Notes: generated from the letters alone by a model not told the origin. Positions 15,479-62,282 are shown, counted from the first letter of the stretch. The stretch: DNA of 64,000 nucleotides from Deltaproteobacteria bacterium (GCA_016936575.1 JAFGXQ010000045.1:70664-134663); one strand, 5' to 3'. Translations and numbers: made by a program.

Positions 15479-15511
15479 GATGCTACTTGCTATACAGAAC
15501 CCGGCTATGTT

Positions 15512-16108
15512 CTATGACGGGTCTTTGCATTGTTCAAGAATGTCTGACTTCAAACCGGGGCAACAGGTATTCGGACCGAAGTAGGAACGCCAGATTAAAT
15601 CAGCGAAGCCTTTGCCCTTGGTGATTTGTCCCATTCGCGCGCCGTTCTGCTTCAGAAGTGTTCCCTGACCGGGAATGTAAATAATCTCCACATAACTGCC
15701 CTTATTTAAATCCTTGGTGAAATACGACAAGAATACGTTAATTTTTTTCTGCAGCTCAGTGGTGTCTTTACCCTGCGGTAAATTTTTCGTGAACGTGTCT
15801 TTCAAGTTGTCAATCAACCGCTTTTTGGGAATGGTTCGCTTCATTGACAGGATCAACGCCTTTACCTCTGACTTGTAGATCACCGACCGCATGCTGCACT
15901 CGCCGCTCTCAGAGTAGGCGCTGAGGCTGTAAATATCCACGAATAGAAATTCGCGGATCGCCGTACCCAGCAATTTGAGAGATTTTCCGGCGACGGCTTT
16001 ATTTTTCGATACTGCTCCCACCGCTGGAGACGGCGGAAACACAGTAACCATAACCAACACTGCCAGCGCGACAATGTACCCTTTTCTTGTGCACCATATT
16101 GCTTTCAT
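15512..16108 (-). CDS. Chalcone-isomerase-fold (CHI-like) secreted protein
   Basis: ORF track gives 15512..16132; start preferred at MKAIW. Signal peptide. LKLLGTAIREFLFVDIYSLSAY matches the CHI-fold core strand motif (L.L.G.G.R...V.Y...Y). C-terminal GFADLIWRSYFG. Confidence 0.45.
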   Translation of the reverse strand: MKAIWCTRKGYIVALAVLVMVTVFPPSPAVGAVSKNKAVAGKSLKLLGTAIREFLFVDIYSLSAYSESGECSMRSVIYKSEVKALILSMKRTIPKKRLIDNLKDTFTKNLPQGKDTTELQKKINVFLSYFTKDLNKGSYVEIIYIPGQGTLLKQNGARMGQITKGKGFADLIWRSYFGPNTCCPGLKSDILEQCKDPS

Positions 16109-16141
16109 GCGGGTTCCTTTATCGTTCAGCAAATCCGCGAC

Positions 16142-17308
16142 CTAATCTTCGCAGATTTTCAGTTGAGAAATAAACCACGGCGCGGGGATAGAACAGTCAC
16201 CGCACATCAATGCCACAATCCAAATCCCTTCGTCGGTAATACCGGTGAACGCGTTGCCGTTGTCATCTGTTAATTCAGAAAGGGTCGCATAGGTACCCGC
16301 ATCGATGGTTTTTCGCCAGATTTCATCTGCCATGTTTTCGAGATTCAGAAAATCGGATTCCAGTGCCGAAATCGTCGTATCGGTGTAGTGTGCAACCATA
16401 ATCCCGGCAATCATCGTGGGTGCGAACTCGCGCCCCATCGCGTTGTTCGTCATGCTGCCGGTCCAATCCAAATACACATCGGCGGTGCCGGGCGGCAAAA
16501 TAATCGGCTCCAGGGAACTGAGATCAGCTTCATAATCCAGTTGCACCGAATCATTGTGAATGGTTACCGTTGAATTGTTCGCATCTTCGCGCACATTGAA
16601 CAACGCGAGCATACGCGCATTTTGACCGAGAATGATGCCCGAAGAAAGCATCACCGAATACGAAAAATCTTCAGGTGGAACATTGACAGGATCCAGCAGA
16701 CTCAGCATGGAGGCTTCATCGAGCGCGGATCCCCCGGGAGAAACCAAATCCAGATAATTGAATGTCGTTGTGCTCTGTTCAGTAAAATACACAGCCGGCG
16801 GATTCGCCAAATCCTGCATTGTCCAATCATCACTATTCAACTTTTCAACCAACTCCTCTTCGTTTGCGGACCAAATGGTCACCAGTGCCATCTGTATATC
16901 GCCCTCGCCATCAAGCGGCTGCCCCAGCATGTCCTGAGTCAGATCATCCCATTGGAACGTAATATCGGTGGAGGGAGTTACCGACGTGGCTTCAATTGTC
17001 ATTTCATTGGTGAACGTGTAATTCTGTGCATCCACCAGTGCATACGACACCACGCCATCTGTGACAGGCACAACATCGCACGAAGGTGGCGGTTCGTCTG
17101 CGTCTGTATCGCTGTCGCTGTCACTGTCTCCGTCGCTATCGACATCCGAGTCGCTGTCAGTATCACCGTCACCATCGGTATCTGTATCGCTGTCACTGTC
17201 ACCATCTGTGCCGCTCTGCTCAGTGTCTGAATTACCGCCGCACGACAACATCGCACCAACGCAGAATATCAACACAAAAACAAACAACCATATTACTGTT
17301 TTCGACAT
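16142..17308 (-). CDS. Lipoprotein with a poly(D-S/T/G) tether and a ~300-aa globular domain of unknown function
   Basis: Lipobox AMLSCGG. Tether [41 protein letters not shown] encoded by a DNA repeat at 17092..17227. Confidence 0.55.
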   Translation of the reverse strand: MSKTVIWLFVFVLIFCVGAMLSCGGNSDTEQSGTDGDSDSDTDTDGDGDTDSDSDVDSDGDSDSDSDTDADEPPPSCDVVPVTDGVVSYALVDAQNYTFTNEMTIEATSVTPSTDITFQWDDLTQDMLGQPLDGEGDIQMALVTIWSANEEELVEKLNSDDWTMQDLANPPAVYFTEQSTTTFNYLDLVSPGGSALDEASMLSLLDPVNVPPEDFSYSVMLSSGIILGQNARMLALFNVREDANNSTVTIHNDSVQLDYEADLSSLEPIILPPGTADVYLDWTGSMTNNAMGREFAPTMIAGIMVAHYTDTTISALESDFLNLENMADEIWRKTIDAGTYATLSELTDDNGNAFTGITDEGIWIVALMCGDCSIPAPWFISQLKICED

Positions 17309-17347
17309 TTTCGTCTCCTTTATCGAAGCGCGCAGAGCGCTGCTTGA

Positions 17348-18766
17348 CTACTGCTCCAGATCCACTGGATGGCCATATAATGTAGGCCGCCAAACCACAT
17401 ATCCGAACGCGGCTTGGCCCAAATCAATTGAACGCACAAGCTGTTCGTCAGCAGCCACCTCGTGCATCAATGCTTTATTACTATACGAAACAAGTGTGTT
17501 GCCATTCGGCAAACGCTGCACATCCCCCAAGGTAGGCGTTCCGAGACCTTCCACACGATACCGCCATATCTCCCGCAACCCGCCGGTATCGCTTGAAAAC
17601 TCGTATTCCAGTGCCTCACTGGTCAGTGTCACATCTGAAAATGAACCACCATTATTGAAAATGAGAATACTGTTGTTGAGCAAATGGTGACCATGCTGAT
17701 ATTTCCACAACCCGTCATTCTGCGTCACCCACGCAACGTCTCCACTTTTATCGAATGCGACAATTTCGCCGTGCTCGTAGTCAGATACCGTAAATAACTG
17801 TTCGGCCATGGAGTAGCGTAACGCATTGCCGTGACACCCGGTTCCCCACGTATCGGCGGTATCGTATATCAAACCGATGTTGCCGTTGGTATCCAACGAC
17901 ATCACACGCGCGCAAACCGCTGAGTTTCCAAATCCGCCTTCCGGAGTGTATTCCAACCAGGCGAACGTGTTGTCATCTACAGGGGTCAAGTCATGCGCGG
18001 CACCCGTCAGCGACGTGAACTGTTTTACTTCCTGGCCATCCATTGACACCAGTTCCACAGCACCGGCGTTTCCCTGATTATTACTCGATACTACCGCCAT
18101 CCATTTGCCGTCGTAGCTCATTCGAGCCCTGGTGCTGTCGCTAAGCGCTGTTGCAGCGTACCACCAAACGATATCGCCGTCGTTGTCTATAATGAATGCC
18201 ATAGGGTTCTGCGAAAAAGAGGCCGCAGTATACGACGCCAAAACGAAAAATCCGGGGGCGACCGACGCTGATTGCGCTACAATGATATCGGCTCGCTGAA
18301 TCACGTTCGTTACCGGTTCAGTCGTGATCACCACATCATGACTGCGATACGTTGTTCCATCAATTACCGCATTCACGCGAACATGGTAGTCAGAAGACCC
18401 CTTCATACCCAGAAGCAATGTTCTGAAATATTCCGCGGTTAACTCCACTGGTGCGGTCATTCCATACTCGCTATCCAACCCGAAGTCGATGGTCGCCGCA
18501 TCGATTTCGTTATCAACATTCGTTGACCATTCCACAATGCCCACTGTTCCGATGGCGTCACTGAGGTTCACAGACACCTCAAACGTGATGTCTCTATCTC
18601 CCGCATCAGTATTGGCATCCGTATTGTCAACTTCAGTTCCGCGGTCGCTATCGTCGGAATCGTCCGAGCGCATACCATCGCCGGCAGCTCTTTCACTGGA
18701 GCAGCTCATCCAGAATACTGCTCCACAAAGTATCGCTAGAAATGTTATGGTTATAGACGCGCGCAT
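17348..18766 (-). CDS. Beta-propeller lipoprotein, arylsulfotransferase-like (tentative), with an N-terminal Ig-like beta-sandwich; paralog of 18788..20560
   Basis: Lipobox WMSCSS. Ig/Fn3-like [72 protein letters not shown]. Propeller blades end in His-rich QHGHHLLNNSILIFNNGG. About 60% identical by eye to the neighbouring gene. Confidence 0.45.
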   Translation of the reverse strand: MRASITITFLAILCGAVFWMSCSSERAAGDGMRSDDSDDSDRGTEVDNTDANTDAGDRDITFEVSVNLSDAIGTVGIVEWSTNVDNEIDAATIDFGLDSEYGMTAPVELTAEYFRTLLLGMKGSSDYHVRVNAVIDGTTYRSHDVVITTEPVTNVIQRADIIVAQSASVAPGFFVLASYTAASFSQNPMAFIIDNDGDIVWWYAATALSDSTRARMSYDGKWMAVVSSNNQGNAGAVELVSMDGQEVKQFTSLTGAAHDLTPVDDNTFAWLEYTPEGGFGNSAVCARVMSLDTNGNIGLIYDTADTWGTGCHGNALRYSMAEQLFTVSDYEHGEIVAFDKSGDVAWVTQNDGLWKYQHGHHLLNNSILIFNNGGSFSDVTLTSEALEYEFSSDTGGLREIWRYRVEGLGTPTLGDVQRLPNGNTLVSYSNKALMHEVAADEQLVRSIDLGQAAFGYVVWRPTLYGHPVDLEQ

Positions 18767-18787
18767 TTAAAATTCGTTTTGCCTCTA

Positions 18788-20560
18788 CTACATGATAACG
18801 TCAGTCGGAGGCCCGTACAGGGTTGGACGCCACACCACATACCCGAACGCGGTCTGCCCGAAGTTGTATTCCCGCACCATCGTTTGAGAGGAATCCACCT
18901 CATGAATAATGGCCTGGTTGCTATAGGCAACAATTGTGTTGTTATTCGGCAATCGCTGAATATCACCCAGGGTGGGAGTTCCCATATTCGGTACACTGTA
19001 ACTCCATACAAGGCTCATATTTCCTCCGCCACTCATGCTGAACTCCATGCCAACACTGGTCAGATTCACATCGGTAAAAGTACCGGCATTATTGAAGATC
19101 AATAGATTGCCGTTATTCAGCAGCTGGTGCCCGTGCTGCGGTCCCCATGAACCATCATTTTGCGTCAGCCACGAGACATTACCGTTTTTGTCAAATGCAA
19201 CAATCTGATGATGTTCATAGTCGGATACGGTAAATAACCCTTCCGCCTCTGAATACCGCAAGGAATTGCCGTGACAGTTGGCCCCCCAGGTATTTGCGGT
19301 GTCATAAATCAAACTGGTGTTGCCGTTTACATCCAGCGACATCACTCTTGCACATGCGGTCGACATAATGCCGCCGGTGCTTGGTACGTACTCCAGATAT
19401 GCAAAATTGTTGTCGTCAGTCACTGTCAAATCATGCGCGGCGCCTGTCAGAGAGGTAAACTGTTTTACCTCCAACCCGTCCATCGAAATCAGTTCCACCG
19501 ACCCTGCGGTTCCATTGTTGTTGCTCGAAACTACCGCCATCCATTTGCCATCGTAGCTCATACGCGCACGAGTGCTGTCTGCCAGTGATGTGGCGGTGTG
19601 CCACCATACAATGTCGCCGTCCGTATCGGCAATAAATGCCATCGGATTCTGCATCCATGAATTTGCCGAATATGATGCGAGGACCATGAATCCTTCACCG
19701 GGTGTGGTCCCGGCATGACTATCGGTAACCGTTGCGGCCTGTATGGCATTGGTCACCGGCCCGGTCGTGACGTTGTAATCTGGGCTGGTATATGTATTAC
19801 CGTCAATCTCAATTACCACGCGCAAATGGTAGGTGCGTGAGCCTTTCATTCCGAGAAGCAGGGTTCTGAAATCTTGTGCGTGCAAGTCTACCGGCGCTTC
19901 CATTCCGTATGCGGTATCCAGACCGAATTCGATATAGGCGCTGTCGATTTGGTCATCGACATTCGTCGACCATGTGACAATCCCAACGGTGCCGATGGCG
20001 CTGCTGGTAGATGGGTTCACCGTAAATGTAACATCCGTGTCGCTGTCACTGTCAGCATCACTGTCGCTATCTGTATCGCTGTCGCTGTCGGCATCACTGT
20101 CAGTATCACTGTCACTGTCGGTATCGCTGTCGCTGTCAGTATCGCTGTCGGTATCACTGTCACTGTCGGTATCGCTGTCACTATCACTATCGCTATCGGT
20201 ATCGCTGTCGCTGTCGCTATCAGTATCACTATCGCTATCGGTATCACTATCGCTATCGGTATCACTATCGCTATCGGTATCACTATCGCTATCGGTATCA
20301 CTATCGCTATCGCCATCGCTATCAGAATCTCCGTCGCTGTCGGCATCGCCATCGCCATCGCCGTCGGAGTCACTGTCGCTATCGCCGTCAGAGTCGCCAT
20401 CACCGTCAGAATCACTATCCCCATCCGAATCACCATCCGAATCACCATCCGAATCACCATCCACATATACCACGTTACCTTCATCTGTCGTACAGCCCGC
20501 CAGTTGGATTGCCGCCAGTACCGCGCTGAGCCAAAGCACAACGAAAATTGAATATTTCAT
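18788..20560 (-). CDS. Beta-propeller lipoprotein, arylsulfotransferase-like (tentative), carrying a ~150-aa poly(D-S/G/T) tether; paralog of 17348..18766
   Basis: Lipobox LAGCTT. 150 aa of [11 protein letters not shown]...TDSDSD, then [72 protein letters not shown], then a propeller with [19 protein letters not shown]. Confidence 0.45.
20005..20458 (-). repeat. Extended coding tandem repeat (6-nt and 18-nt periodicities: gtatcactatcgctatcg, gtcgctgtcact) encoding (D-S-D-x)n
   Basis: Near-perfect reiteration visible at 20220..20320 (atcggtatcactatcgct x5). It produces overlapping spurious ORFs in all six frames (19874..20551, 19974..20621, 20017..20541). Confidence 0.85.
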
Positions 20561-20653
20561 TCGTCTATTCCTTTCTACGTTCCTCCAAGCCTTCCAGATT
20601 TCGGTTGGAGAAATGCGATAGTTTCTTATTAATTGTATGACACGTTTTCGAAT

Positions 20654-21484
20654 TCAGGGACGCTCCAGATATTCAGTTGTAAAATATAAATCTTTTGTAT
20701 TGGGTATATTTTCTATCTTTTCGATTTTAAAAATTGATTTTCTGCCGTTTTGTTTGTTCGTCATTTCCATATACTTTGATCGATATCTTTTTTTCAACTC
20801 GTCAAGGCATTCAATATTTTTGCTTTTCAGCTCTTTCAGCAGCTCCCCTTCCAAATCAAAATACAGCGCTTTTCGAATGGTATATTCTTCTTTCGCGATC
20901 CAGATTTTCTTTTTTGAATACCCTTCGTCCTCAGCAACGTCTTCATTTTTAGGTTTAACTTCAATCAGCCAACACGAAACACCATCCACCGCTTCTTCCT
21001 TCAGTGTTCTAAACGTGTAGTCTGTCAGCGTCGGTGTGTTCATATCGGCGTATGAAAACTCGCTTCCCATAAATGCCTTGGAACGTTCTGATGTGACAAT
21101 CCGCCGGGTTTTTCTGAGTGCAGGCAGATAAATCCACATATCATCCCCTTTATTTTCATAATCGAACGCAAGCACACCTGTTCCTTTGACGTCCGCCGGC
21201 GATAAGAACCGATATACCCGTTTTTCAGTCTTACCGTTGTCGAATAGTTTGGTAACCATCGCTATCTTGCGCTCTCGCTTTTCGCCTTTTCCGTTCTGAA
21301 TAATCAGCTTCATCACCGCCTCAGAACCATCCAGTTTGCGCGACAATGCAGCGTTTTCCATAATTTCTTTTGCCGTGAGCGTCGCCCCTGCATCTGCATT
21401 CATACCAGCGGAAATCACCAATCCAACAATAACCCCCAACACAAGCATGTTCGAAAACAAATATCGTCCTACTCTCATATCCAT
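20654..21484 (-). CDS. LolA-like outer-membrane lipoprotein-sorting/carrier protein (MMPL-associated family)
   Basis: 276 aa. Signal peptide, then an unclosed beta-barrel-type sequence (VLAFDYENKGDDMWIYLPALRKTRRI, SEFSYADM) typical of the LolA_like family encoded next to MMPL exporters. Basic K/E-rich C-terminus. Confidence 0.55.
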   Translation of the reverse strand: MDMRVGRYLFSNMLVLGVIVGLVISAGMNADAGATLTAKEIMENAALSRKLDGSEAVMKLIIQNGKGEKRERKIAMVTKLFDNGKTEKRVYRFLSPADVKGTGVLAFDYENKGDDMWIYLPALRKTRRIVTSERSKAFMGSEFSYADMNTPTLTDYTFRTLKEEAVDGVSCWLIEVKPKNEDVAEDEGYSKKKIWIAKEEYTIRKALYFDLEGELLKELKSKNIECLDELKKRYRSKYMEMTNKQNGRKSIFKIEKIENIPNTKDLYFTTEYLERP

Positions 21485-21519
21485 TCTCCTTTTTATAAAA
21501 GCACTTTAAAACAAGTGGT

Positions 21520-23841
21520 CTACGCCGCGCCGGGTAATTCCTCGGTCGAATTTCCACTCTCTGTAGGCTCCAGAAATTTTGGTTTAAATACAATCACCAC
21601 TGCCGGCAGCACCACCAGCGCACCGATAAGACACGAGACAATAGAAACCACCACCAGTAACCCGAAAAACTGTACAGGAAAAAACTGCGACAGAAGCAAC
21701 ACCACAAACCCAACCACCACCGAAAAACCATTGAACAGGATTCCCCGTCCCGCCGAACGCAATGTTATTTTCACCGCATCCATCGGTTCCGCCAGCCTGC
21801 GTTCCTCGCGATAACGCCACAGAAAATGAATGGTGTAATCAATGCCAACACCAATCATAATCGATGAAAGCATCGCGGTAATCAAATTCAATTCAATGCC
21901 CCAATACCCCATCAACCCGAACAATATTGAAACAGCAATTCCCAAAGGAATCATCGAAATCAGCCCCGCAACAACCGATCGCATTACAGCGCCTACCAAC
22001 ACACCACACAGGAGAATAGACAAAAACAAACTCAACAACTGCCCCCGTACGATGTAATCCACCATGTTGGTAATCACATCCAATAAACCGCCCACAATCG
22101 TGAACGGTGCCTGAGGATGGGCATCAATGTACGCCTGTGTGTAATGGACCACATCGGTTGCCGCCCGGGTTCCACTGTCTCGTACCTGCGCAAGGATTTG
22201 CGCATTGCGATAATTGAAGTCTACGAGTTTATTGAAATCCTCAATATCGCCGCTAAGCGAGTACAGCAGAAAGTACTGCGCAATCAAATCTCGTTTGTCC
22301 GGAACTTTATCCGCAGATGCGGCGTTGTCGTTCATTACTCTGTTCATTCCGCGCACCATTGCGGCGATTGATGATGTGGTACCCACCAGTGGATGCTTTT
22401 TCAGATGCCTTTCCAGTTTATCGATTTCCTTCATCACCGCAGGGTCTTTGATGTCGCCCTTGGCAACGATCGACACATTCGCCCACCCTCCGAAATGTTC
22501 ATTCAACATATGGGTGGCGCGCCAAACCGGATCGTTTTTTTTGTAAAAACTCATCGGATTGCTGTCTACAACAATAAATGCCGCACCTGTTGCAAATGCC
22601 ACGAGCAGAACCCCGCTGATGATTAAAATTCCTCTGGATTTTTTTGACGCGACATCCCCTATGAAATTCAACAAGCGACTCATCAATGTCGCCACATCCT
22701 GAATCTTTTTTTCTTTTTTCTTCTTCGATTTCGATTTCGGCAATACTGCCAATACCGCGGGAATAAACACCAAGCTGCCCACCATTGCAAAGGCAACACC
22801 GGCAGCAGCCAGAATTCCCAGCTGCTCTGCCGGAATGATGATATGCGAGAGCAGACAAAGAAGCCCCACCATCGTGGTGATTCCGCTTGCCAGAATGGGT
22901 TGATTTAAATGCTGAACAGTCGCATGGGCAAGCTGCTTCGAATCGAGTTCCTTGTTTTCAGCACGTTCTTCCTGATATCTCGCCATAATGTGAATTCCGT
23001 AATCATTTGCCACAGCAAGAAGGATTACGGGAAGCAACACGGTGACAGTATGAATTTTCCATCCGAGGAACGCGAGCAGACCAAGCGCAAACACGATTGC
23101 CATCACTGTCATAATAAACGGCATCAACACGCCGCGTGCTTCCCGGAAACATAACAGCAAGAAAATAAACATCAGCACCAAACCGACCGGAAGAAAACGA
23201 GACATGTCCTTTCGAATATCTTTCGAAAGCTTCACGCGGGTAACCGGCATCCCACCAATTAACGCATCTCCGGGCCCTTTCGTCTGTTTAATCAGTTGCT
23301 CCAGCTGACCAACCACTTTTTCATCTGAAGCGTCCGTCGCCAGAAAACCGATAAGCACCGTGTGTTTGAAATCCTTCGATACGATGTTCCCGTACACCAA
23401 CTCATTTTCTTTTAAATCATGACGTAGCGTTTCCTTCTGCTTCTCGCTTTTCGGTATACGGCGAATCGCCTGTTCCACCACCAGCTCTCCGCATTCGGCA
23501 CTGATATGTTTGGCGGTGAAAAGAGTGATTACCCGATCGAACTCTTTGATATGTTCAAACTTTTTCGACATTTCCTTCAACCGGTGAATCACGTCGATAT
23601 CGAGAATATCATCGGCAGAAAGCACAATCATGATCATATCGGTTCCACCGAACAGCTTTTCAATTTGGGTCAGATTTTTTCGAGTGGGCAAATCCACAGG
23701 CAGTTGATTCTTCATCTCCGTATCCAACTCAATGTGCCGAAGTTGAAAAGCAGCGGCAACCGTAACTGCAACAAAAATAACGATAATCGGCCAGGGGTGT
23801 GAGGTGACAAAATTTGCAAAACTGTTCTTCCGCTGTTTCAT
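21520..23841 (-). CDS. MMPL/RND-superfamily lipid exporter (HpnN/MmpL-like, 12 TM with two periplasmic loops)
   Basis: 773 aa. The N-terminal TM segment is followed by a periplasmic domain, a six-TM block (LMFIFLLLCF...GLLAFLGWKIHTVTVLLPVILLAVANDYGIHI), and then a second periplasmic domain and a second TM block (GIAVSILFGLMGYWGIELNLITAMLSSIMIGVGIDYTIHFLWRYREE). This is the classic duplicated RND/MMPL topology. Confidence 0.8.
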   Translation of the reverse strand: MKQRKNSFANFVTSHPWPIIVIFVAVTVAAAFQLRHIELDTEMKNQLPVDLPTRKNLTQIEKLFGGTDMIMIVLSADDILDIDVIHRLKEMSKKFEHIKEFDRVITLFTAKHISAECGELVVEQAIRRIPKSEKQKETLRHDLKENELVYGNIVSKDFKHTVLIGFLATDASDEKVVGQLEQLIKQTKGPGDALIGGMPVTRVKLSKDIRKDMSRFLPVGLVLMFIFLLLCFREARGVLMPFIMTVMAIVFALGLLAFLGWKIHTVTVLLPVILLAVANDYGIHIMARYQEERAENKELDSKQLAHATVQHLNQPILASGITTMVGLLCLLSHIIIPAEQLGILAAAGVAFAMVGSLVFIPAVLAVLPKSKSKKKKEKKIQDVATLMSRLLNFIGDVASKKSRGILIISGVLLVAFATGAAFIVVDSNPMSFYKKNDPVWRATHMLNEHFGGWANVSIVAKGDIKDPAVMKEIDKLERHLKKHPLVGTTSSIAAMVRGMNRVMNDNAASADKVPDKRDLIAQYFLLYSLSGDIEDFNKLVDFNYRNAQILAQVRDSGTRAATDVVHYTQAYIDAHPQAPFTIVGGLLDVITNMVDYIVRGQLLSLFLSILLCGVLVGAVMRSVVAGLISMIPLGIAVSILFGLMGYWGIELNLITAMLSSIMIGVGIDYTIHFLWRYREERRLAEPMDAVKITLRSAGRGILFNGFSVVVGFVVLLLSQFFPVQFFGLLVVVSIVSCLIGALVVLPAVVIVFKPKFLEPTESGNSTEELPGAA

Positions 23842-23854
23842 TTTATTCTCTTCC

Positions 23855-25402: not shown

Positions 25403-25403
25403 G

Positions 25404-26873
25404 TCAGAACCTGTACGATAATGCGAGCGATGAAAAGTGATAACTGCTCACATATACTCCGCTATTCGCTGTGGCTGAGGGCTGTTCAGGATAGTGGGCA
25501 TCGCAATTGTTGTTATCGGTATACGGCGCCTCACAAAAGCTTCCCGGAACTTGTTGATAAATCTGTCCGTTACTTTCGCTCATTGAAAATGGAATTTCAT
25601 ATACATAGGTGTATGACAGGGACACATCAAATCTTCCCAATATCAATGTTGTGCCCGCGCTCGCACCGAGTCGATGGGTGGCGGGAAAATCCACATAGGC
25701 AAAATTCTTTCTACTCGCTGCTGTTTCATAGAATGTACCTGCACGTATAATAAGACGATTGTCTATCACGTTCATGTCACCCCCAAACCGCACACTGAAC
25801 GTGTTTTTCCAGTGTTTCGGTATGACAATCTCTCCGACTTCAACACTGACCCCCATGACATCAGCGTACAGTCCCTTGCCGTCGATGATGTATTCATCCA
25901 TCTGGGACCAGAACTCATAGCGAACATCAAGTTCCAAGTCGTACAGATCTCTCTTTCCGCGCAAATGAATGTATCTCGCACCTGCCCGCAGCTCCATCGG
26001 AAGGGTCATTGCAAACGTCACGTTGTTATCAGGATTGTCGTTTCTGCTGAGCTCCGGCGCTTCTTCAAGAGAAAGAAACACTGGTGTGAGCGAAAGCTCG
26101 CTGTCCGCGTGTAGATAAGTAGGAATCAGCCGTCCGGAAAACGCCAGTTGAAAAGAAGGCATTGGATGCACCCAGAATCCGAGAATTGCCGAAATCCCGG
26201 TATGGTCTGCGCCTTTCACAGTAGCCGCCATATCAAACAGGCTGGAAACCGGGCTGACCTGCCCGGGAGTCGTATCTCCGTTCACAATTAATTGCAATTC
26301 CAACTGTGCCAAATCCACCCACTGCAGACTGACCCCCACACCGAACACATCCTTGTACCGCCATGCCGCACTGAGGCTGTAATACAGAATTTTTGTATCC
26401 CGCCGTGTCAACATATAGCGCTGACCACCGTCTTGCGAAAATTCCTGCGTGGAAATACCGGCCGGTGCGTAGGTTCCCAACGCAAACGCCCAGCTCTGAA
26501 GGCCGAAATCCGTCGATACGACAATCATCGGCCCGAGCAACTGCCAAGTGTGCTCGTTATTCACAGTGTCAAATGTTACGTAGTCGGGAATACCCTCGCC
26601 GGCCTCGCTCCAGTCCAGTAAAGGCGCACGCCTGAATTGTTCATGCGCGTAACCGAACCGATTACTCAGATATAGTTGCGTGCCGTGTAGAGATGTCAAT
26701 CCCGCGGGGTTATATTCAATGGCGGTGGCATCATCAGCTTTAGCAACAAAGGCACCACCTCGACCAGCGGCCACCGCGCCCTGATCTCCCACCGATATTC
26801 CAGCAGACAACACATCATTCGAAAACATGACGATGATTCCCCCCAACGCGCATAGAACAATAAAAAAAGCCAT
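25404..26873 (-). CDS. FadL/OmpP1/TodX-family outer-membrane hydrophobic-compound transporter
   Basis: ORF track gives 25404..27020, but that extension overlaps the upstream gene. Start preferred at MAFFIVLCALGG (signal peptide). The N-terminal hatch motif GAVAAGRGGAFVAKADDATAIEYNPAGLT matches the FadL consensus (G.GRAGA..AEDAS...YNPAG). The C-terminus ends in ...LSYRF. Confidence 0.6.
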   Translation of the reverse strand: MAFFIVLCALGGIIVMFSNDVLSAGISVGDQGAVAAGRGGAFVAKADDATAIEYNPAGLTSLHGTQLYLSNRFGYAHEQFRRAPLLDWSEAGEGIPDYVTFDTVNNEHTWQLLGPMIVVSTDFGLQSWAFALGTYAPAGISTQEFSQDGGQRYMLTRRDTKILYYSLSAAWRYKDVFGVGVSLQWVDLAQLELQLIVNGDTTPGQVSPVSSLFDMAATVKGADHTGISAILGFWVHPMPSFQLAFSGRLIPTYLHADSELSLTPVFLSLEEAPELSRNDNPDNNVTFAMTLPMELRAGARYIHLRGKRDLYDLELDVRYEFWSQMDEYIIDGKGLYADVMGVSVEVGEIVIPKHWKNTFSVRFGGDMNVIDNRLIIRAGTFYETAASRKNFAYVDFPATHRLGASAGTTLILGRFDVSLSYTYVYEIPFSMSESNGQIYQQVPGSFCEAPYTDNNNCDAHYPEQPSATANSGVYVSSYHFSSLALSYRF

Positions 26874-26922
26874 CTGAAACTGTCGATGCGGCCGATAGAA
26901 CACAGTCACCCCTTTGCCTCTC

Positions 26923-27918
26923 CTATACCCCTGTACAATCCGCTGACATGGTGTTTCTGAACAACGAAGTAACATCTTCAGCTTCAAAGAAAGCCGATAG
27001 TCGATAACCGATTCGCCCATCCGCTGTCACACAGCTGGGTACGATTTCAGCTGCATCCATAATTCCGCGAAAGGTCGCCCAGTTTCCATTTTGCCCACAG
27101 GCGCTGGCGCAATAGCCCGAAATCGCTTCCACTGAAAACGATTCAAACGGATCTTCCGGCGGTGTCGGAAAACCGGTTTCCGGTAAAGCGCCGTCTTTAC
27201 TGCACAATCCGGCCTTGATACACATACAAATTTGATTGACCGACTCCTGCGGCAGGCACCCTTCAAGATGCCCCGACGAAATCTGACTACAGTTTTCATT
27301 AAAACCGAACGTAACATGCAGATCATGAATCGGCGTGCTGTTCGCGGGAGACAACAACGGCGCACACATCAGAGGATCAGTCTGCGGCCCCAAATGAAAA
27401 TATAACGTCTGTGCCTCGGTGTTTCTGAATCTGCACTGATAACCGTTTGACGGAATGACATCAACGCCGATATTCAACGATTCATCCATAAAACAATACG
27501 ACTCAATCGTCGAAAAATCATCGTTTGAATATCCGGTAGAAGGCGTGCGCCAGGCCGGGCCCACACTCAATTGCAGCCTGGAGAAGGCCGCGAGTTCGTC
27601 GTCATCGGCTTCTGCAATGTCAACCACGAACAGCACATTCAGCAGGTAATTCGAAATCTCGTATTCCCACATGCTGTCGAGTGTCACGTTCAGCCTGGCC
27701 GGTTGGTCAACGGTTAAACGGGTAAATCGATAGGCCCGGCCTGTCACGTCCTCGGGCGTGCAGTTGCACTGAGTATTCTCCCCTGTCGCATCGCCTTGGA
27801 TAAAGACATCCGGAGCCGGCGGCTCAATAATGTCCACACAAGCAACAACGGTCATCATCGCAACGGCCAATGTAGTTGTCAGCCTATACGCCTGCGACGT
27901 TCTCACCGCTCTCTTCAT
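26923..27918 (-). CDS. Cysteine-containing secreted lipoprotein of unknown function
   Basis: Start preferred at MKRAVRT. Signal peptide with VVACVD lipobox-like site, about 20 Cys, no recognisable domain. Confidence 0.4.
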   Translation of the reverse strand: MKRAVRTSQAYRLTTTLAVAMMTVVACVDIIEPPAPDVFIQGDATGENTQCNCTPEDVTGRAYRFTRLTVDQPARLNVTLDSMWEYEISNYLLNVLFVVDIAEADDDELAAFSRLQLSVGPAWRTPSTGYSNDDFSTIESYCFMDESLNIGVDVIPSNGYQCRFRNTEAQTLYFHLGPQTDPLMCAPLLSPANSTPIHDLHVTFGFNENCSQISSGHLEGCLPQESVNQICMCIKAGLCSKDGALPETGFPTPPEDPFESFSVEAISGYCASACGQNGNWATFRGIMDAAEIVPSCVTADGRIGYRLSAFFEAEDVTSLFRNTMSADCTGV

Positions 27919-27955
27919 GTGAAATACATGCTTACAGATTCGCACAAGGGTCATC

Positions 27956-28756
27956 CTATTCTGCGCACTCCGCACTTGCTGCTACGACTTCTGTCAACTG
28001 AAGACCTGAAACGACCTGACCAGTTACATTACTTGCGGTAAGATGCATGCAGAACAACTCGCCGTCATGTTCGCATTCTTCACATGCAAATCCCATCGTC
28101 GGCGCAGTGTTGCAAATCTTTTCAGGCGTGGGGTCTGTAAACATGATTGTAAACAGTTCGTAAATATCTCTGAAATCAACTGTGGCTTTGAGGGTACCAT
28201 CGATAAATGCATCTCCTCCGTTCACCAGAGACCCTGAAATACTCAAATCATGAATGGTTGCTACTTCGAAGGCACCATTTCCTTCAATAACGGTTTCCAG
28301 ATTTGTCGGACCAATCAGAAAATCGGGATTGTCCGCAATCGTGCCGCTGCACGAGGCCGTGGCACTACACATATCCTGCACACCGTCATTCATCGTTCCC
28401 ATCGAAGTCGTCAGCGCGGATTGAGCGATTTCTACAACGGTAAAGGCAAATATCGGAACATATCCGCCCAACTCCGCCCCCACACCGGACGGTGTCCAGT
28501 TTGCAGCCGGAATTTCATCCAGGGCATAGGTATTCGCCAAAATAACACTAACGTCTTCCAGGGGCGTTGCATCTAAAGTTTCGCTGGGGGTATCTGATTC
28601 CGAATCCACATCGGTTCCGCTGTCAGATGCAGTGTCACTATCGTTCGTGTCGATATTATCAGAATCATCGGCCTCATCCCCGGTTTTGTCGCCACAACTC
28701 AGCAGTAGCAGACAAAACAACCCTACCAATCCGGACAATTTCAATTGCGTTTCCAT
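27956..28756 (-). CDS. Lipoprotein with acidic D/S/T tether; unknown globular domain
   Basis: Lipobox LLLSCGD. Tether KTGDEADDSDNIDTNDSDTASDSGTDVDSESDTPSETLD. Confidence 0.5.
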   Translation of the reverse strand: METQLKLSGLVGLFCLLLLSCGDKTGDEADDSDNIDTNDSDTASDSGTDVDSESDTPSETLDATPLEDVSVILANTYALDEIPAANWTPSGVGAELGGYVPIFAFTVVEIAQSALTTSMGTMNDGVQDMCSATASCSGTIADNPDFLIGPTNLETVIEGNGAFEVATIHDLSISGSLVNGGDAFIDGTLKATVDFRDIYELFTIMFTDPTPEKICNTAPTMGFACEECEHDGELFCMHLTASNVTGQVVSGLQLTEVVAASAECAE

Positions 28757-28789
28757 GTTACTTTTTCCTCCATTTGTTCTTCGCCGGTT

Positions 28790-29812
28790 CTATACCCAGA
28801 TGCCTGCCACTGTGGCCATTGTGAACCCCGACGCGGCACTTCCCAGCATGAGTTTTTCATCCTTTTGCGGTTCTCTTTGAGAAAGCAGATAATCAAACAC
28901 CACACCAATCGTGGCGCTGGCGTTATTTCCGTACAAGTGATGCGTGTATACTCCCCTATCCAATTCTGCACCGATTTTCGACAGAACCTTCCGCGTCATG
29001 AATTCGCTGGGTTGATGAAATAAGTAATGCGCAACCTCGTTGGGATCCCATCCCAATTTCTTCAACACCTCCATCAGACGAGGTGCAATATACTTATGAA
29101 GTTTCATCAGTTCCGTCGATGATGAACTGAATGTGCCGTGAATCGGCACCTGGCAGAGAGACCAGTGGTTAGGCAGAGAATGCGTGTCGGTACTGACAAC
29201 CCGAACACATCCGTTTGACCAGGGATTTTTGCTCACCAGAAAACAAGCTGCTGCGTTTCCGATGGTCAAACCGGCGGCTTTGTACTGCAAATCGGTAAGT
29301 GTTTGAATATCGAACGACAAAAACTCCCGCGAGAGTTCAGCTGTACAAACCAACGCAGTCTCGTAGTCATCGTGCATATTCAGGTACGCACAGGCGACCT
29401 GCACAGCTTCCAAATGTCCCACGCACGCACTGGTTACGTCAAAAGCATGCGTCTGTGTGATGCCAAGATTCGCACACACTTCCATTGCCGTAGCAGGCTC
29501 AAAGTACTCTCTTGCCACCCCACCGAAAATCACCAAATCCACATCGTCCAAAGCAGTGCTGTTTCTCTCGAGGCAGTTAGCAGCTGCCTTTGCCGCATAC
29601 GCCGCGACCCTTGACTCAGGATTGAAATCCAGGTAGCGCACCTGAGTATTACATTTGCTCAAAATCTTTTTGGTTGCCGCTTCAATGGCTGTCCACGCAA
29701 GCTTATTTCCCTTGTAGTTTTGTTTGACCAAATCGATAATCGCAGCATTGTCATATCGTGTATCAGGTACATGAATTCCCGGCTTAGATAAATATAGTTC
29801 TGGCATCGTCAT
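28790..29812 (-). CDS. FabH-like beta-ketoacyl-ACP synthase III / condensing enzyme (KAS III family, DarB/OleA-type candidate)
   Basis: Start preferred at ATGACGATG (MTMPELYL), with AGGAAC 6 nt upstream. Catalytic triad context: Cys in DVTSACVGHLEAV, His in YLFHQPSEFMTRKVL, Asn in LYGNNASATIGVV. The C-terminus is GSAASGFTMATVAGIWV. Confidence 0.75.
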   Translation of the reverse strand: MTMPELYLSKPGIHVPDTRYDNAAIIDLVKQNYKGNKLAWTAIEAATKKILSKCNTQVRYLDFNPESRVAAYAAKAAANCLERNSTALDDVDLVIFGGVAREYFEPATAMEVCANLGITQTHAFDVTSACVGHLEAVQVACAYLNMHDDYETALVCTAELSREFLSFDIQTLTDLQYKAAGLTIGNAAACFLVSKNPWSNGCVRVVSTDTHSLPNHWSLCQVPIHGTFSSSSTELMKLHKYIAPRLMEVLKKLGWDPNEVAHYLFHQPSEFMTRKVLSKIGAELDRGVYTHHLYGNNASATIGVVFDYLLSQREPQKDEKLMLGSAASGFTMATVAGIWV

Positions 29813-30023
29813 TGAATTGTTCCTGTATGTGTTTCCAGAAATCGTCCATGCAAGACAGCTCAGCATGTAAAGCCGTCTTAATCGAAGATTTAAACAATGG
29901 TGCGAACGAAGCGAGGAAAGGGGTTGATATAAATGAACCTTTTTTACTTATTCTTTTTACAGAGGAAAATGATTGCAGCTTATTTGAAAAATTTCGTTCA
30001 TCTCAAATCATTTCAACATTCTG

Positions 30024-31103
30024 TCACAAAAAAGTCTGATAAAATTCGGCGTAGTCACATCGAATCTGCTCTTCTGTTAAGCCAAACTTTTCCAGATTGT
30101 ATGCATGTTTGCTTTCGAATGCGCGTTGTTTCTGAGCGGTGTTATCAATCACCGTTCGCAATTCAGCAGATATTTCTCCACCTACAAACGGAATGATTTC
30201 GTCCATCAGTCCGTCGAAATCCTTCATCAAACGATCAAACGTCACAACCTTGACATTGGAACGATTAATTCTTCCGCTTTCCCAATCCCGCTGAAAACGC
30301 AAACTGAGTTCGAGTAACGCGGCATACAGCCGCTTGATAAAATGCGTTCGTTTTTCCTCGGGTAAACTCCAGAACCCGAATGCGCCGTCCAAAACGCCGG
30401 TAACCAGACTGAGACCGGACGGCACAGTCGAGAGCGGATCTCTTGCCATGTATAAAATTTTCGCATCCGGAAACCGATTCAAGAAGGAAGGCAGACGAAT
30501 GCCAAGTGAAAACAGCTTCCCTACAATGCGTTCTTTCTTTTCACTCACCAACACGCGGCGCCAACATTTCTCAATCCATTTAAAGTCGCGTTTGGCCGTA
30601 TCCCGCAGGTCCGGATCAAACATATCTCTCAAGTCCTTTTTCGACCAAGATAAGAAGAATCCGTAAATGAAAAAGCCGTCAAAGTAGCGAAACATCAGCG
30701 CCGGATCATCGGTTTCCACAGATGTCAGATTCGTCTTGTGCGCAGCATGGGCGTGATGTTTTGCAGGACTGAACTTCTCCATAATCGGAAGAAACGGCTT
30801 CAGCAAAGTCTGCAGCGTTAAAGAGGGATAGATCATCTTCCACAGTCTGGAACCCGTCCCGAACCCGTTATCAGTTAAAAACCGCTGCAGGAACGTTGTT
30901 CCGCTTCGAGGATTTCCCACTATCACAATCGGACTCGCAACTCGTTTTTTACGAAGCGACGGAAAAAACAAATGGTCGAGCACCATAAATACCGATACTG
31001 TCGCATGCAGCAGAAAAATGCCTGAAAATATAAAAACAGGAGAGATTACCTTACGAAATGCGCGTATCAATGCTTTGTGCACCAGAAACATTCTTGAAAT
31101 CAT
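30024..31103 (-). CDS. PAPS-dependent sulfotransferase, membrane-anchored (N-terminal TM helix)
   Basis: 5'-PSB motif IVGNPRSGTTFLQRFL, 3'-PB motif ILYMARDPLSTVPS. N-terminal hydrophobic helix ISPVFIFSGIFLLHATVSVFMVL. Confidence 0.7.
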   Translation of the reverse strand: MISRMFLVHKALIRAFRKVISPVFIFSGIFLLHATVSVFMVLDHLFFPSLRKKRVASPIVIVGNPRSGTTFLQRFLTDNGFGTGSRLWKMIYPSLTLQTLLKPFLPIMEKFSPAKHHAHAAHKTNLTSVETDDPALMFRYFDGFFIYGFFLSWSKKDLRDMFDPDLRDTAKRDFKWIEKCWRRVLVSEKKERIVGKLFSLGIRLPSFLNRFPDAKILYMARDPLSTVPSGLSLVTGVLDGAFGFWSLPEEKRTHFIKRLYAALLELSLRFQRDWESGRINRSNVKVVTFDRLMKDFDGLMDEIIPFVGGEISAELRTVIDNTAQKQRAFESKHAYNLEKFGLTEEQIRCDYAEFYQTFL

Positions 31104-31515
31104 TGTTCGGTTTTTCCTTTTTTAGTTCATCCAACAGAAACAAAATTATCACATCTCTTTAGTGCACTGTTCCGCCGCAACAGGGTTGGCTTTTATTTTG
31201 TAAAATCCGAAAAATATCTTCAGAAGGAGAATATTCGCGTCACCCTCGGTGCGATAGATTCGCAATTCTCGATACAGCGCCTTATTCGACGAACCTGACT
31301 TCATAAAAAAAATAAACACCGTTACCAATTCAGGTTACTCGTCTTGATTCGAATCTATGAGGGCCTGTGCCGAAATGCTGTAGTCGTGTGGGACTAAACT
31401 CGCGTCATTCGCAGGAAGCGCTGCAGCCGACTTGCGTAAAATCAGCGATGACAAAACTCAGGATAGCGAAGAACGTTAAAACCCGAGCTATGGAGACTTG
31501 ATTTCGACGGGCGTT

Positions 31516-33165
31516 CTAAGGTGCCAGAGTGAGTTGGCCTTCATCGAGTGAAATCTGGTAGTAGCCGTGGTCGTCCCAGGCCAGTTTCTGACCATTTTGA
31601 GTAAGTGTTCCGCCATCCACGGTAACACGCAGACATTTTCCGGACGGAAAATTATCGGGCAGGTTCCACGACCAACTATGGCCGTCACCGCTGCTCGACG
31701 GACTCACAGACGAAAATGTTTTTTGTCCAATCCAATATGCCCCCACATTCACCACGCTGTCTATCCATACATCTCCGTATGATTTCATTTCGTTGACACC
31801 CGATACCATAGAACTGATTGGAATCGCGTTATACGCACCGTCTCCATATCCAGTGAACCCGTGCACGCAGTAAACTGCCCATCCGCCTTGATTACGCGCG
31901 TTGTTTGCCGGCACGCCGAACGTATACGCGTCCGCCCCCGCCGCTGGAATATATGACGGCAGATTAAAGGGATTTGAGTTGTCATTCGGCATAATAATAG
32001 CGCCGGCCACACCGCGGTTGATGATATACCGCGTACTTGCGGGAGAAGAACAAACCGTGCTCCCCTCTGGCGCCGCCATCGTATAGATTTCGATGTCCAG
32101 CGCGCTCTCCAGCAACTGCTCCGCGGTGTCAATCGACGAAGTATTACATGTGTGATCAGTGGTGTGATTTCCGATTTCGTGCCCACCGGCAACCGCATCG
32201 TGCCAAATCGATGCATTCTCGTCGTTCCAATTGGTCACAAGGTAGAATGTGTAGTGAACCCCCAGGCCTGAGAGCGTCCCCCATTCCTGAATGGTTGATT
32301 GGGTTCCATCATCGAGAGAATAGCTCACCGCCGCAGAATATCCCGCCCAATTCAACACCTGCAAATTGCCGGCCGCTCCAGAGGGCTTCGCCTGTCCACT
32401 GCTTCCCACATCCGGAAGTCCGCAATCATACACAACCCCCGGGTCTGAATCTGAATCGGAATCAGCATCGGAATCGGCGTCTGTATCGCTATCGCTGTCT
32501 GTATCGCTATCGCTGTCTGTATCGCTATCGCTGTCTGTGTCAGTGTCACTGTCAGTATCGGTATCGCCGTCTGTTGTACCGCCGGCATTGCAGCAAATGG
32601 CGGCCCAACCGTTTTCCGGACTGGGCACACATGGCGTTGCGCCGACAATTTCGCCTCCCAAACCGCCCCAGGTCGGATCACCGGTACACGCCCATTCGCT
32701 CGATACACATTCATACGCGCAGTCAGCATCTGAGTCGGTATCGCCATCGGAATCCGTGTCACTATCTGAATCCGTGTCACTATCCGAATCCGAATCGGCG
32801 TCGGAGTCGGTATCAGTGTCTGTATCTGCATCACTATCTGAATCCGTGTCACTATCCGAGTCTGTATCAGTGTCTGAATCCGTATCGCTGTCCGAGTCGC
32901 TGTCAGCGTCTGAATCTGTATCGCTGTCGGAATCCGTATCGCTATCCGAGTCGCTGTCAGCGTCTGAATCTCCGTCACCATCGGCATCGGCATCACTGTC
33001 TGAATCAGAGTCACCGTCGGAATCCCCGTCGGAATCCCCGTCTCCGTCGGAATCACTGTCGGAGTCCGCATCCGCGTCAGTCAAATCGACCGAAGCATCC
33101 TCTTGTCCGCATGCCATCAAAAACAATTGCGCCCCGAAAATAATAATATACAAATACTTGCTCAT
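31516..33165 (-). CDS. Lipoprotein with a ~210-aa poly-Asp repeat tether fused to a polysaccharide-deacetylase (CE4/NodB) domain
   Basis: ORF track gives 31516..33183; start preferred at [21 protein letters not shown] (lipobox LMAC, ACGGAG RBS). CE4 motifs: [11 protein letters not shown] (TFDDG-like) and [11 protein letters not shown] (H-S/T-x-x-H). Two acidic repeat blocks. Confidence 0.65.
32397..33087 (-). repeat. Two blocks of coding tandem repeats (gtatcgctatcgctgtct-type 18-mers and cgaatccgtgtcactatc units) encoding poly(D-S/T/A/G)
   Basis: Near-identical 18-nt units visible at 32470..32530 and 32750..32800. Produces long shadow ORFs (32037..33143 plus, 32366..33304 plus, 32352..33071 minus). 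Confidence 0.85.
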
Positions 33166-33448
33166 ATCGCTCCGTATCCCCATTCAGATTCAAAGGATTA
33201 GTCCGTTCAAAACATACTTTTCGTGCCAACCCATAGGCAACCATCCAAACAGTACCGCCACCATCTACAACGGCTCAAAGGGATTGCGCGCACGCACAAA
33301 ATGACCAGATTTGGACATTGAAGAGAAAAACTGTACACAACACGAAGGCGTGAATTCTCACATTTAAAAGAAGTGAAACTGAGGCCCAACGACAACAGTT
33401 CTGATTTCATTGACCCATGAATACTGACGTTATTATTTGGCATGAAAG

Positions 33449-34414: not shown

Positions 34415-34422
34415 ATGCGGAA

Positions 34423-34959: not shown

Positions 34960-35024
34960 AACCGTTCTCTTTGCAGATGTTTATTTTTCAATTGTTCCGC
35001 CTTTTTTTCAGGAGTACAAATATA

Positions 35025-35039
35025 CGACAATATTTGTCG
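35025..35039. promoter_or_regulatory. Inverted repeat CGACA-ATATT-TGTCG immediately upstream of the WYL-regulator gene; candidate auto-operator
   Basis: Perfect 5-bp arms with a 5-bp AT centre, read directly. It lies in the 82-bp divergent spacer between the 34959 (minus) and 35042 (plus) starts. Confidence 0.3.
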
Positions 35040-35041
35040 CA

Positions 35042-53150: not shown

Positions 53151-53154
53151 CAAG

Positions 53155-54135: not shown

Positions 54136-54369
54136 TGTAGAGGGAAACCCGATAAGAGGGCAAAAAAAAATCCTCCAAAGTGCCGTAGGTTAAGCGGTGA
54201 CCCGCTGACGCTGCAAGTGGGTTCCATATCGCTGCTTAAGGCTTCCAATCGAATGGCTTGCACACCGCAACGAGAGCTGAATCCCTATTTTCTGGTACAG
54301 CTGGGTCACATATCGCAGCGTTACGTACACTTCAGAGGACTCACACTATAAATTTGGCCACAGAATCGG

Positions 54370-58924: not shown

Positions 58925-58945
58925 CTGCGTTGTCCAACCATCCAA

Positions 58946-62276: not shown

Positions 62277-62282
62277 TCCTCT

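Follow-up and report, generated by a model that had tools for sequence, protein, structure and literature searches.

Sulfotransferases of the bacterial arylsulfate sulfotransferase (ASST) type cannot use 3'-phosphoadenosine 5'-phosphosulfate (PAPS); their donor has to be a sulfate ester whose leaving group is good (PMC13426309). According to a 2026 review the natural substrates and the physiological role of bacterial arylsulfotransferases are unknown with Cpz4 as the single exception, and phenols are preferred by the characterised enzymes (PMC13426309). Cpz4 belongs to the caprazamycin pathway of Streptomyces in which the type III polyketide synthase Cpz6 forms pyrones that are sulfated by the PAPS enzyme Cpz8 and then serve the ASST-type Cpz4 as donor (Tang et al. 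2013, Nat Chem Biol 9:610, as cited in PMC4257720 and PMC13426309). Further systems close to the one presented here are the AmeABCD-type transporters of Castellaniella and Pseudomonas, the ASST of E. coli CFT073 with related bacterial enzymes, the condensing enzyme OleA of Xanthomonas (the head-to-head Claisen thiolase of the OleABCD pathway to olefins and beta-lactones), and the mycobacterial Stf sulfotransferases and sulfolipid export (Stf0/MmpL8, Stf3, Stf1/Stf9). Here we describe a locus from a Deltaproteobacteria bacterium, located in a stretch of 64,000 nucleotides (GCA_016936575.1, JAFGXQ010000045.1:70664-134663; hereafter the window), in which a condensing enzyme, a PAPS-type sulfotransferase and two ASST-like proteins are encoded together with a set of lipid transport proteins. 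We see an even chance that this locus is a two-step sulfate relay on a lipid carrier.

The locus comprises 13 co-directional open reading frames (ORFs), all on the minus strand, within positions 15512-33183. They lie at the coordinates given by an earlier reading of the same DNA, the original prediction, and each domain call made there was reproduced with the Pfam and NCBIfam hidden Markov models (HMMs). A metagenome scan for the window-type 3-ketoacyl-ACP synthase III (KAS III) yielded 226 relatives, and 31 loci of at least 8 kb were counted; as most contigs are incomplete, the counts are lower bounds. The DUF1302-like barrel was present in 28 of the 31 loci, the acidic lipoprotein in 27, the LolA-like carrier and the FadL-like barrel in 26 each, ASST-like proteins in 23, the MMPL exporter in 18, and a sulfotransferase of the same family as that of the window in 16. 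A DHHA1 protein was encoded in 12 loci, CysNC or adenosine 5'-phosphosulfate (APS) kinase in 11, and CysD in 9. The window KAS III family as a whole has 569 matches, and the genomic context was viewed in three loci (L087, L088, and L089). L087 repeats the window order exactly (KAS III, two lipoproteins, FadL, DUF1302, MMPL, LolA, ASST), with the sulfotransferase of its source metagenome-assembled genome (MAG) on a separate contig (L078). L088 contains ASST-like genes, MMPL, FadL, a homologue of the acidic lipoprotein, KAS III, DUF1302, LolA, a sulfotransferase (54% identity), DHHA1, CysNC, and CysD. L089, on a 1.5-Mb contig, contains ten of the families of the window. Among Myxococcales the sulfotransferase is most similar to that of L007 (77% identity), where the acidic lipoprotein, the CHI-fold protein, the lipoprotein LP266, FadL, DUF1302, MMPL, LolA, and the sulfotransferase are found together.

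The conserved cassette consists of the KAS III, the sulfotransferase, the ASST-like protein, the acidic lipoprotein, and the MMPL, LolA-like, DUF1302-like, and FadL-like proteins, and these eight families recur jointly in dozens of genomes and metagenome contigs. This co-conservation shows the locus to be a functional unit, as the original prediction had proposed. Four of the genes which it had counted as members do not share in the conservation, namely those for the CE4 deacetylase, found in none of the 31 loci and set apart by an AT-rich gap of 412 bp, and for the CHI-fold protein and the lipoproteins LP350 and LP266, found in none, one, and three of the loci. The remaining intergenic distances are, in the order of transcription, 157 or 211 bp between sulfotransferase and KAS III (depending on the KAS III start), 33, about 37, about 49, 1, 13, 35, 93, 21, 39, and 9 bp; the gaps of 1, 13, 21, and 412 bp quoted in the original prediction agree with the coordinates. 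One could argue that envelope and lipid genes without any relation happen to be adjacent here in the same direction. A scan of the locus for promoters and terminators remained at chance level, giving no operon evidence and no information on operon boundaries, and in some close relatives the sulfotransferase lies elsewhere in the genome. Nevertheless, the same eight families are found together, with their order rearranged, on dozens of contigs that are independent of each other and stem from several phyla and habitats, and fortuitous adjacency is effectively refuted by these neighbourhood statistics. Literature searches, one of which targeted the DUF1302/DUF1329 transport half only, found no published description of the gene set. 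The cassette thus appears to be widespread in bacteria and, as had been supposed for the composition of the locus, undescribed.

The sulfotransferase (30024-31103, 359 aa; Sulfotransfer_3, E 6.4e-14) is membrane-anchored, having hydrophobic helices at its N-terminus, and carries the 5'-phosphosulfate binding loop GNPRSGTT and the 3'-phosphate binding motif RDP. The sequences GNPRSGTT and RDPLSTVPSG do not vary across 15 homologues, and GNPRSGTT and RDP line up with the PRTGTT and RDP motifs of 2z6v. In fold similarity the mycobacterial Stf1/Stf9 type is ahead of the other sulfotransferase classes, among which tyrosylprotein sulfotransferase scored 13, the heparan sulfotransferases about 12, the sulfotransferase domain of olefin synthase 10.8, Stf0 9.0, and Cpz8 8.1. 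A homologue of the Stf0/MmpL8 sulfolipid-1 system was rejected, and the sulfotransferase was found not to be of a polysaccharide-sulfating type, in line with the lipid assignment of the original prediction. The window is from a Deltaproteobacteria/Myxococcota MAG of Zodletone spring. An identical sulfotransferase sequence is present in assembly GCA_016934495.1 (contig JAFGTB010000154.1, 278 kb); related contigs of the JAFG series are MAGs from Zodletone spring labelled Deltaproteobacteria or Polyangia.

Relatives of the sulfotransferase were found in 255 species of at least eight phyla when one genome per GTDB species was scanned. The family is conserved at 58-80% identity in Polyangia, KSB1, Fibrobacterota, Ignavibacteria, Bacteroidota, Marinimicrobia, Hyphomicrobiales, and Ketobacter/Pseudomonadales. 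From the loci found in these species 80 were kept and 81 loci were counted; the ORFs were called, clustered, and recounted with HMMs, and the 33 loci flanked on either side by 8 kb or more were taken as a well-flanked subset. The ORF calling was crude, many loci are cut off by contig ends, and copies of MMPL and ASST that have diverged escape the tblastn thresholds. ASST-like genes were found beside the sulfotransferase in 64 of the 81 loci and in 29 of the 33 well-flanked ones (the HMM count is 145 ORFs, and the ORF cluster contains 155). KAS III genes adjoin it in 40 and 23 loci, barrels clustering with the DUF1302-like barrel of the window in 43 and 17, MMPL genes in 18 and 8, and LolA-like genes in 14 and 7 loci, respectively.

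The composition of the loci differs between the phyla. The Ketobacter locus contains KAS III, sulfotransferase, ASST, and a fatty acyl-AMP ligase–acyl carrier protein (FAAL-ACP), an extra gene seen in gammaproteobacterial loci. In the Ignavibacteria locus two ASSTs are followed by KAS III, sulfotransferase, APS kinase, and four further ASSTs, with type IX secretion system (T9SS) tails on some of the six, and in the KSB1 locus five ASSTs, mostly with CBM_4_9 domains, surround KAS III and sulfotransferase. In total up to seven ASST-like paralogues occur per locus, many of them with T9SS tails or carbohydrate-binding module (CBM) domains. The Marinimicrobia loci show an invariable order of sulfotransferase, START protein, and DUF1302-like barrel, with ASSTs on the flanks. 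This START-domain lipid-transfer protein is secreted, comprises 200 aa, and is encoded directly downstream of the sulfotransferase (L030, L034, L037, and about 37 other loci); it has no Pfam match at default thresholds, and was identified by weak but consistent PF01852 matches in 7 of 12 members and by a profile match to PDB entry 3qsz (E 5e-11). In L089 the sulfotransferase homologue (14551-15565, plus strand) was called as 269 aa, and its tblastn match falls into two overlapping pieces, which suggests a frameshift or an assembly error.

PAPS is made in the cytoplasm and is not expected outside it. ATP sulfurylase-APS kinase fusions, CysD, CysNC, APS kinase, and phosphatases resembling CysQ are encoded in several of the sulfotransferase loci, and genes for PAPS synthesis and CysQ-like proteins are seen with the FabH-like type of KAS III as well. 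The gene of the DHHA1 protein lies beside that of the sulfotransferase in the 12 loci that have it, L088 (14805-15767, minus strand) and L089 (13551-14531, plus strand) being examples. It has 320 aa with a weak domain, and may be an NrnA-like phosphatase for 3'-phosphoadenosine 5'-phosphate (pAp) that clears this by-product. These PAPS and pAp genes adjoin homologous loci, none of them lying in the window, and their support for PAPS as the putative donor of the sulfotransferase is indirect. It had been proposed that a sulfate-assimilation operon downstream of the locus could supply the sulfur. In Pfam searches this operon (58196-63987, minus strand) encodes a CysH-type PAPS_reduct protein, a GltD-like Fe-S flavoprotein, a NIR_SIR sulfite reductase, a PALP cysteine synthase (CysK), and a siroheme TP_methylase. 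It is a reductive set with neither ATP sulfurylase nor APS kinase, and therefore uses up activated sulfate and does not supply PAPS.

The KAS III of the window (28790-29866, probable start at 29812, resulting in 340 aa) matches the KAS III domain and contains a Cys-His-Asn triad and the OleA-type Glu-Pro motif REYFEPATAME. The motifs were aligned to 3row, and YFEPATAME, ACVGH, HQPSE, and YGN are invariant among 14 members of the family. Among solved structures it comes closest to Xanthomonas OleA (3row, E 3.5e-15, about 59 bits), which shares the triad and the Glu-Pro motif and in which Glu117 is the base contributed by the second subunit. Unlike OleA, the window enzyme has no OleB, OleC, or OleD nearby, and its partner is a sulfotransferase: Pfam revealed no family match for alpha/beta-hydrolase, AMP-ligase, or SDR in the 13 genes or their flanks. 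Membership in the Ole pathway was ruled out on these grounds and by the score of 117.8 bits against NF006720 (PRK09258), the cut-off being 285. A housekeeping FabH was ruled out as well, since the score against TIGR00747 is 82.8 bits (cut-off 292.1), the identity to E. coli FabH is 19%, and no fab genes adjoin the KAS III gene. In this respect the original prediction, which had expected a KAS III other than an ordinary FabH, was borne out. Its comparison with aryl-polyene and flexirubin loci was not, as Pfam detected no ACP, KS/CLF, KR, DH, or acyltransferase domains in the 13 genes or the flanks.

In other phyla the KAS III adjoining the sulfotransferase belongs to a separate FabH-like family, which is about 30% identical to E. 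coli FabH, has an intact triad, and scores under the FabH cut-offs. The identity between this family and the window KAS III is 17-21%, with the Cys-His-Asn triad present in both. The occurrence of two non-orthologous KAS III lineages in one role suggests that a common beta-keto product is what counts.

The two ASST-like propeller lipoproteins, ASST1 (17348-18766) and the six-bladed ASST2 (18788-20560), are paralogues with 66% identity. Against PF05935 and PF14269, with cut-offs of 24.2 and 27 bits, ASST1 scores 47.8 and 30.5 bits and ASST2 37.6 and 29.3 bits, respectively. ASST2 has a long Asp-Ser/Asp-Thr linker and an FN3-like N-terminal domain. An extracytoplasmic location is indicated by signal peptides with WMSC and, in ASST2, LAGC lipoboxes and by homologues with T9SS C-terminal domains. 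With phmmer ASST1 gave no match in the PDB, so that a profile was needed for a link to solved structures. The ASST profile, including ASST1 and ASST2, matches 9kf4, annotated "Sulfotransferase", with E 2e-14, followed by E. coli ASST (3elq) with E 8e-10. 9kf4 is probably Cpz4, as it belongs to the deposition series of Cpz8 (9kf2).

In the profile alignment H312-x-N314 of ASST1 corresponds to His356/Asn358 of the E. coli enzyme, and H358 in a Gln-His motif corresponds to the catalytic His436. Among 31 members of the subfamily (24-54% identity) N314 is conserved in 100%, H358 in 97%, H258 in 94%, and H312 in 81%, which places these four among the best-kept residues. Like the ASST of E. coli CFT073, the window proteins are extracytoplasmic six-bladed propellers with an N-terminal beta-sandwich. 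They differ from it in their very divergent sequences, in being lipoproteins with acidic linkers, and in being encoded with a candidate donor-synthesis pathway and not with DsbL/DsbI. On the basis of the alignment, ASST1 and ASST2 look like active ping-pong sulfotransferases acting outside the cytoplasm. E. coli ASST depends on the dedicated DsbL/DsbI pair. About 4 kb from the locus a protein of 531 aa with GILT, Thioredoxin_4, and DsbA-like domains (Pfam) is encoded on the plus strand (37441-39036), and a link of this protein to the ASSTs is conceivable.

The MMPL protein (21520-23841) belongs to the HAE3 family of resistance-nodulation-division (RND) inner-membrane lipid exporters. It matches Pfam MMPL in two stretches (155.7 bits, E 1.9e-45), has the RND architecture with 12 transmembrane segments, and scores 319 bits against TIGR00921 (HAE3), slightly under the cut-off of 352. 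A sterol or hopanoid transporter was rejected on BstA and HpnN scores far under the cut-offs. The LolA-like periplasmic lipid carrier (20654-21484; Pfam LolA_like, E 8.9e-55) is related to TP_0789/DUF1329 proteins and has a signal peptide. Two outer-membrane proteins complete the transport set, a DUF1302-like beta-barrel (23855-25402; Pfam DUF1302, E 2e-7) and a FadL/TodX-type channel for hydrophobic molecules (25404-27020, probable start near 26909; Toluene_X, E 1.4e-17). The acidic lipoprotein of the cassette (16142-17308) has no Pfam family. In its confidently predicted structure (predicted local distance difference test score 90.7) an acidic linker is followed by two beta-sandwich domains in tandem, and structural comparison gave no informative relative. 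Lipoboxes or signal peptides are readable in the ASSTs, the three family-less proteins, the CE4 deacetylase, the LolA-like protein, both barrels, and the CHI-fold protein.

This set resembles the AmeABCD-type transporters in combining a DUF1302 barrel, a LolA-superfamily protein, a beta-propeller, and a HAE3 RND pump, and both are proposed to move hydrophobic molecules across the envelope. In contrast to AmeABCD, the propeller is ASST-like and not BNR/Ycf48-like, so that the four AmeABCD components are not all present. The additions are a FadL-type barrel, the KAS III, the PAPS sulfotransferase, and the novel two-beta-sandwich lipoprotein, and a connection with sulfur metabolism is new. The parallel architecture raises the alternative that the ASST-like propellers have no catalytic function and are structural components of a transporter like AmeABCD, standing in for the BNR/Ycf48-like propeller, while the PAPS enzyme alone sulfates. 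We regard this as very improbable, because the catalytic His and the His-x-Asn motif are the best-conserved residues of the subfamily and because ASST-like genes stand beside the sulfotransferase in loci without a nearby MMPL or LolA gene (Ketobacter, Ignavibacteria, KSB1).

Three features together argue for a lipid carrier crossing the diderm envelope along with a fourth, the membrane anchor of the sulfotransferase: the FAAL-ACP of the gammaproteobacterial loci, the MMPL exporter with the two barrels, and the recruitment of three periplasmic lipid-carrier folds (LolA-like and CHI-fold in the window, secreted START in Marinimicrobia). The product is probably a lipid carried across the envelope. 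In the proposed relay, the OleA-like KAS III would condense acyl thioesters in the cytoplasm to a long-chain 1,3-dicarbonyl compound (of the beta-keto acid, enol, pyrone, or resorcinol type), and the Stf1/Stf9-type sulfotransferase would use PAPS at the inner membrane face to sulfate an acidic enol or phenol-like hydroxyl. On chemical grounds, an enol, pyrone, or resorcinol hydroxyl would give an activated sulfate. The MMPL/HAE3 pump would then extract the sulfated lipid, the LolA-like carrier, in this lineage with the CHI-fold protein, would ferry it through the periplasm, and the DUF1302-like and FadL-like barrels would pass it into or through the outer membrane. ASST1 and ASST2 would accept the sulfuryl group on H358 and hand it on to acceptors outside the cytoplasm, and the spent carrier might return via the FadL-type channel. 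The gene content, the assignment of families and folds, the conservation of catalytic residues, and the joint conservation of the genes are what the analysis shows. We infer the carrier chemistry, the transport direction, the acceptors, and that the lipid acts as donor; the structure of the carrier is a guess.

The logic of such a relay is that of Cpz6, Cpz8, and Cpz4, a condensing enzyme of the thiolase superfamily followed by a PAPS sulfotransferase and a PAPS-independent ASST-type enzyme, but the resemblance does not extend to orthology. Here, however, the condensing enzyme is an OleA-like or FabH-like KAS III and not a type III polyketide synthase, and the sulfotransferase is not of the Cpz8 type. 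Moreover, the ASSTs are extracytoplasmic, as lipoproteins or T9SS cargo, a trans-envelope lipid transport set is attached, and dedicated PAPS/pAp genes occur in cassette loci. Whereas the Cpz enzymes are a tailoring step in an antibiotic cluster, we are dealing with a chromosomal cassette of diderms from at least eight phyla.

The sulfated lipid could also be the end product, namely an unusual sulfolipid of the outer leaflet which the KAS III and the sulfotransferase produce and the MMPL protein, the LolA-like carrier, and the barrels put in place, with the ASSTs only remodelling it or adding further sulfates. The same co-conservation data fit, as does the recruitment of lipid carriers of three folds; the sulfotransferase has the Stf1/Stf9 fold, with homologues auto-annotated as Stf3-like menaquinone sulfotransferases, and hopanoids are among the envelope lipids exported by HAE3/MMPL pumps (PMC6394551). 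What such a sulfolipid leaves unexplained is that the sulfotransferase has as its most constant neighbours PAPS-independent transferases whose ping-pong histidine is intact, that up to seven paralogues with CBM or T9SS domains are present, and that two unrelated KAS III lineages were recruited. For these reasons we consider a sulfolipid end product rather unlikely, while taking it seriously. The original prediction had favoured production, sulfation, and outer-leaflet placement of an unusual lipid. Its unit, its non-FabH KAS III, and its lipid transport stand, but the ASSTs are no add-on and are the most constant partners of the sulfotransferase, and this is why we prefer a relay to plain placement of a sulfolipid.

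Several observations weigh against a relay. About 30% of the well-flanked sulfotransferase loci have no KAS III within 10 kb, and in several close relatives (L008-L011, L078) the sulfotransferase is unlinked. Concerning the donor, tblastn with PAPS-pathway proteins found ATP sulfurylase, APS kinase, and CysQ to be absent from the window. The OleA-type product, a 2-alkyl-3-keto acid, is unstable and is not known to be a sulfotransferase substrate or a good sulfuryl donor. In the propellers, Arg374 of the E. coli ASST is not kept and aligns with a Tyr; E. coli His252 lies outside the aligned stretch, with H258 as candidate counterpart by a mapping that is not rigorous. Finally, no acceptor can be named.

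With regard to the acceptor, one further alternative was considered, in which FadL, the LolA-like protein, and MMPL handle exogenous hydrophobic phenolics that are sulfated by the periplasmic ASSTs, and thereby made soluble or neutralised, with a donor that the KAS III and the sulfotransferase produce. Hydrophobic molecules are what FadL/TodX channels normally take up, AmeABCD-type DUF1302/DUF1329/HAE3 cassettes give monoterpene tolerance, and the characterised enzymes favour phenols. Such uptake or detoxification amounts to a sub-case of the relay with a particular acceptor. It appears improbable, as the locus has no aromatic catabolic or regulatory genes and the T9SS-secreted, CBM-bearing ASSTs of other phyla point to polymeric acceptors.

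More generally, we tentatively propose, rating the chances somewhat below even, that diverse diderm bacteria possess a lipid-linked activated sulfate whose lipid is made and charged in the cytoplasm, travels a dedicated MMPL/carrier/barrel route, and serves secreted ASSTs to sulfate surface or extracellular polymers. If true, such a lipid would be to sulfate what undecaprenyl-phosphate-linked donors are to sugars; for bacterial ASSTs the long-sought physiological donor and role would be identified, and extracytoplasmic sulfation would be a general envelope process. The cassette is a concrete candidate for the missing donor pathway of the bacterial PAPS-independent arylsulfotransferases, which are biocatalysts in wide use, and would offer a route for sulfate delivery outside the cytoplasm, where PAPS is unavailable. 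It also provides a first functional context for DUF1302-like barrels, LolA-like TP_0789 proteins, the secreted START protein, and the new two-beta-sandwich lipoprotein. The gene set is abundant in ocean Marinimicrobia, soil Myxococcota-like bacteria, and sediment phyla, with a possible bearing on sulfated exopolymers, the chemistry of surfaces, and the cycling of organic sulfur.

The genes of the locus outside the core cassette encode four proteins. LP266 (27956-28756), a lipoprotein with an LLSC lipobox and an acidic linker, and LP350 (26923-27975, probable start at 27918), with a VVAC lipobox, have no Pfam family; the secreted CHI-fold protein (15512-16132; Pfam Chalcone_3, E 1.4e-21) is of the fatty-acid-binding type. 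In the loci examined LP266 has relatives in L087, L089, L155, and L007 only, LP350 in L087 only (39% identity), and the CHI-fold protein in L007 only (48% identity), and by sequence comparison all three are lineage-specific. The CE4 deacetylase (31516-33183) matches Polysacc_deac_1. The idea that it is an N-deacetylase preparing the acceptor was dropped for want of co-conservation.

Long Asp-Ser/Asp-Thr/Asp-Gly linkers follow the lipobox in many lipoproteins of this organism, encoded at 14126-15478 on the plus strand and at 16142-17308, 18788-20560, 27956-28756, and 31516-33183 on the minus strand; these low-complexity linkers lead to spurious high scores against the repeats of staphylococcal SdrC, SdrD, and ClfA. 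Another lipoprotein without a Pfam family was seen outside the window: a repeat protein of 500 aa (L005, 15868-17382, minus strand) is paired with a TPR protein and has counterparts in L013, L018, L020, L026, and L028. In KSB1, Cytophagia, and related loci this pair is positioned between the ASST block and the DUF1302/MMPL block.

On the 5' side of the CE4 gene (33449-36055) an RCC1-repeat protein (plus strand), a DUF1439 lipoprotein (minus strand), and a WYL/WCX/HTH regulator (plus strand) are encoded, none of which is conserved with the cassette. Farther away, two slightly overlapping genes on the minus strand (52395-54135) encode a 3-oxo-5-alpha-steroid 4-dehydrogenase-like protein (Steroid_dh, E 2.4e-53) and a 3-beta-HSD/epimerase-like protein; the pair may have a role in sterol or polyprenoid modification in this Myxococcota-like genome. 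Rfam revealed no riboswitch in or near the locus, and its sole match in the window is a 6S/SsrS RNA gene at 54168-54341 on the minus strand (RF00013, 84.4 bits, matched over the full length).

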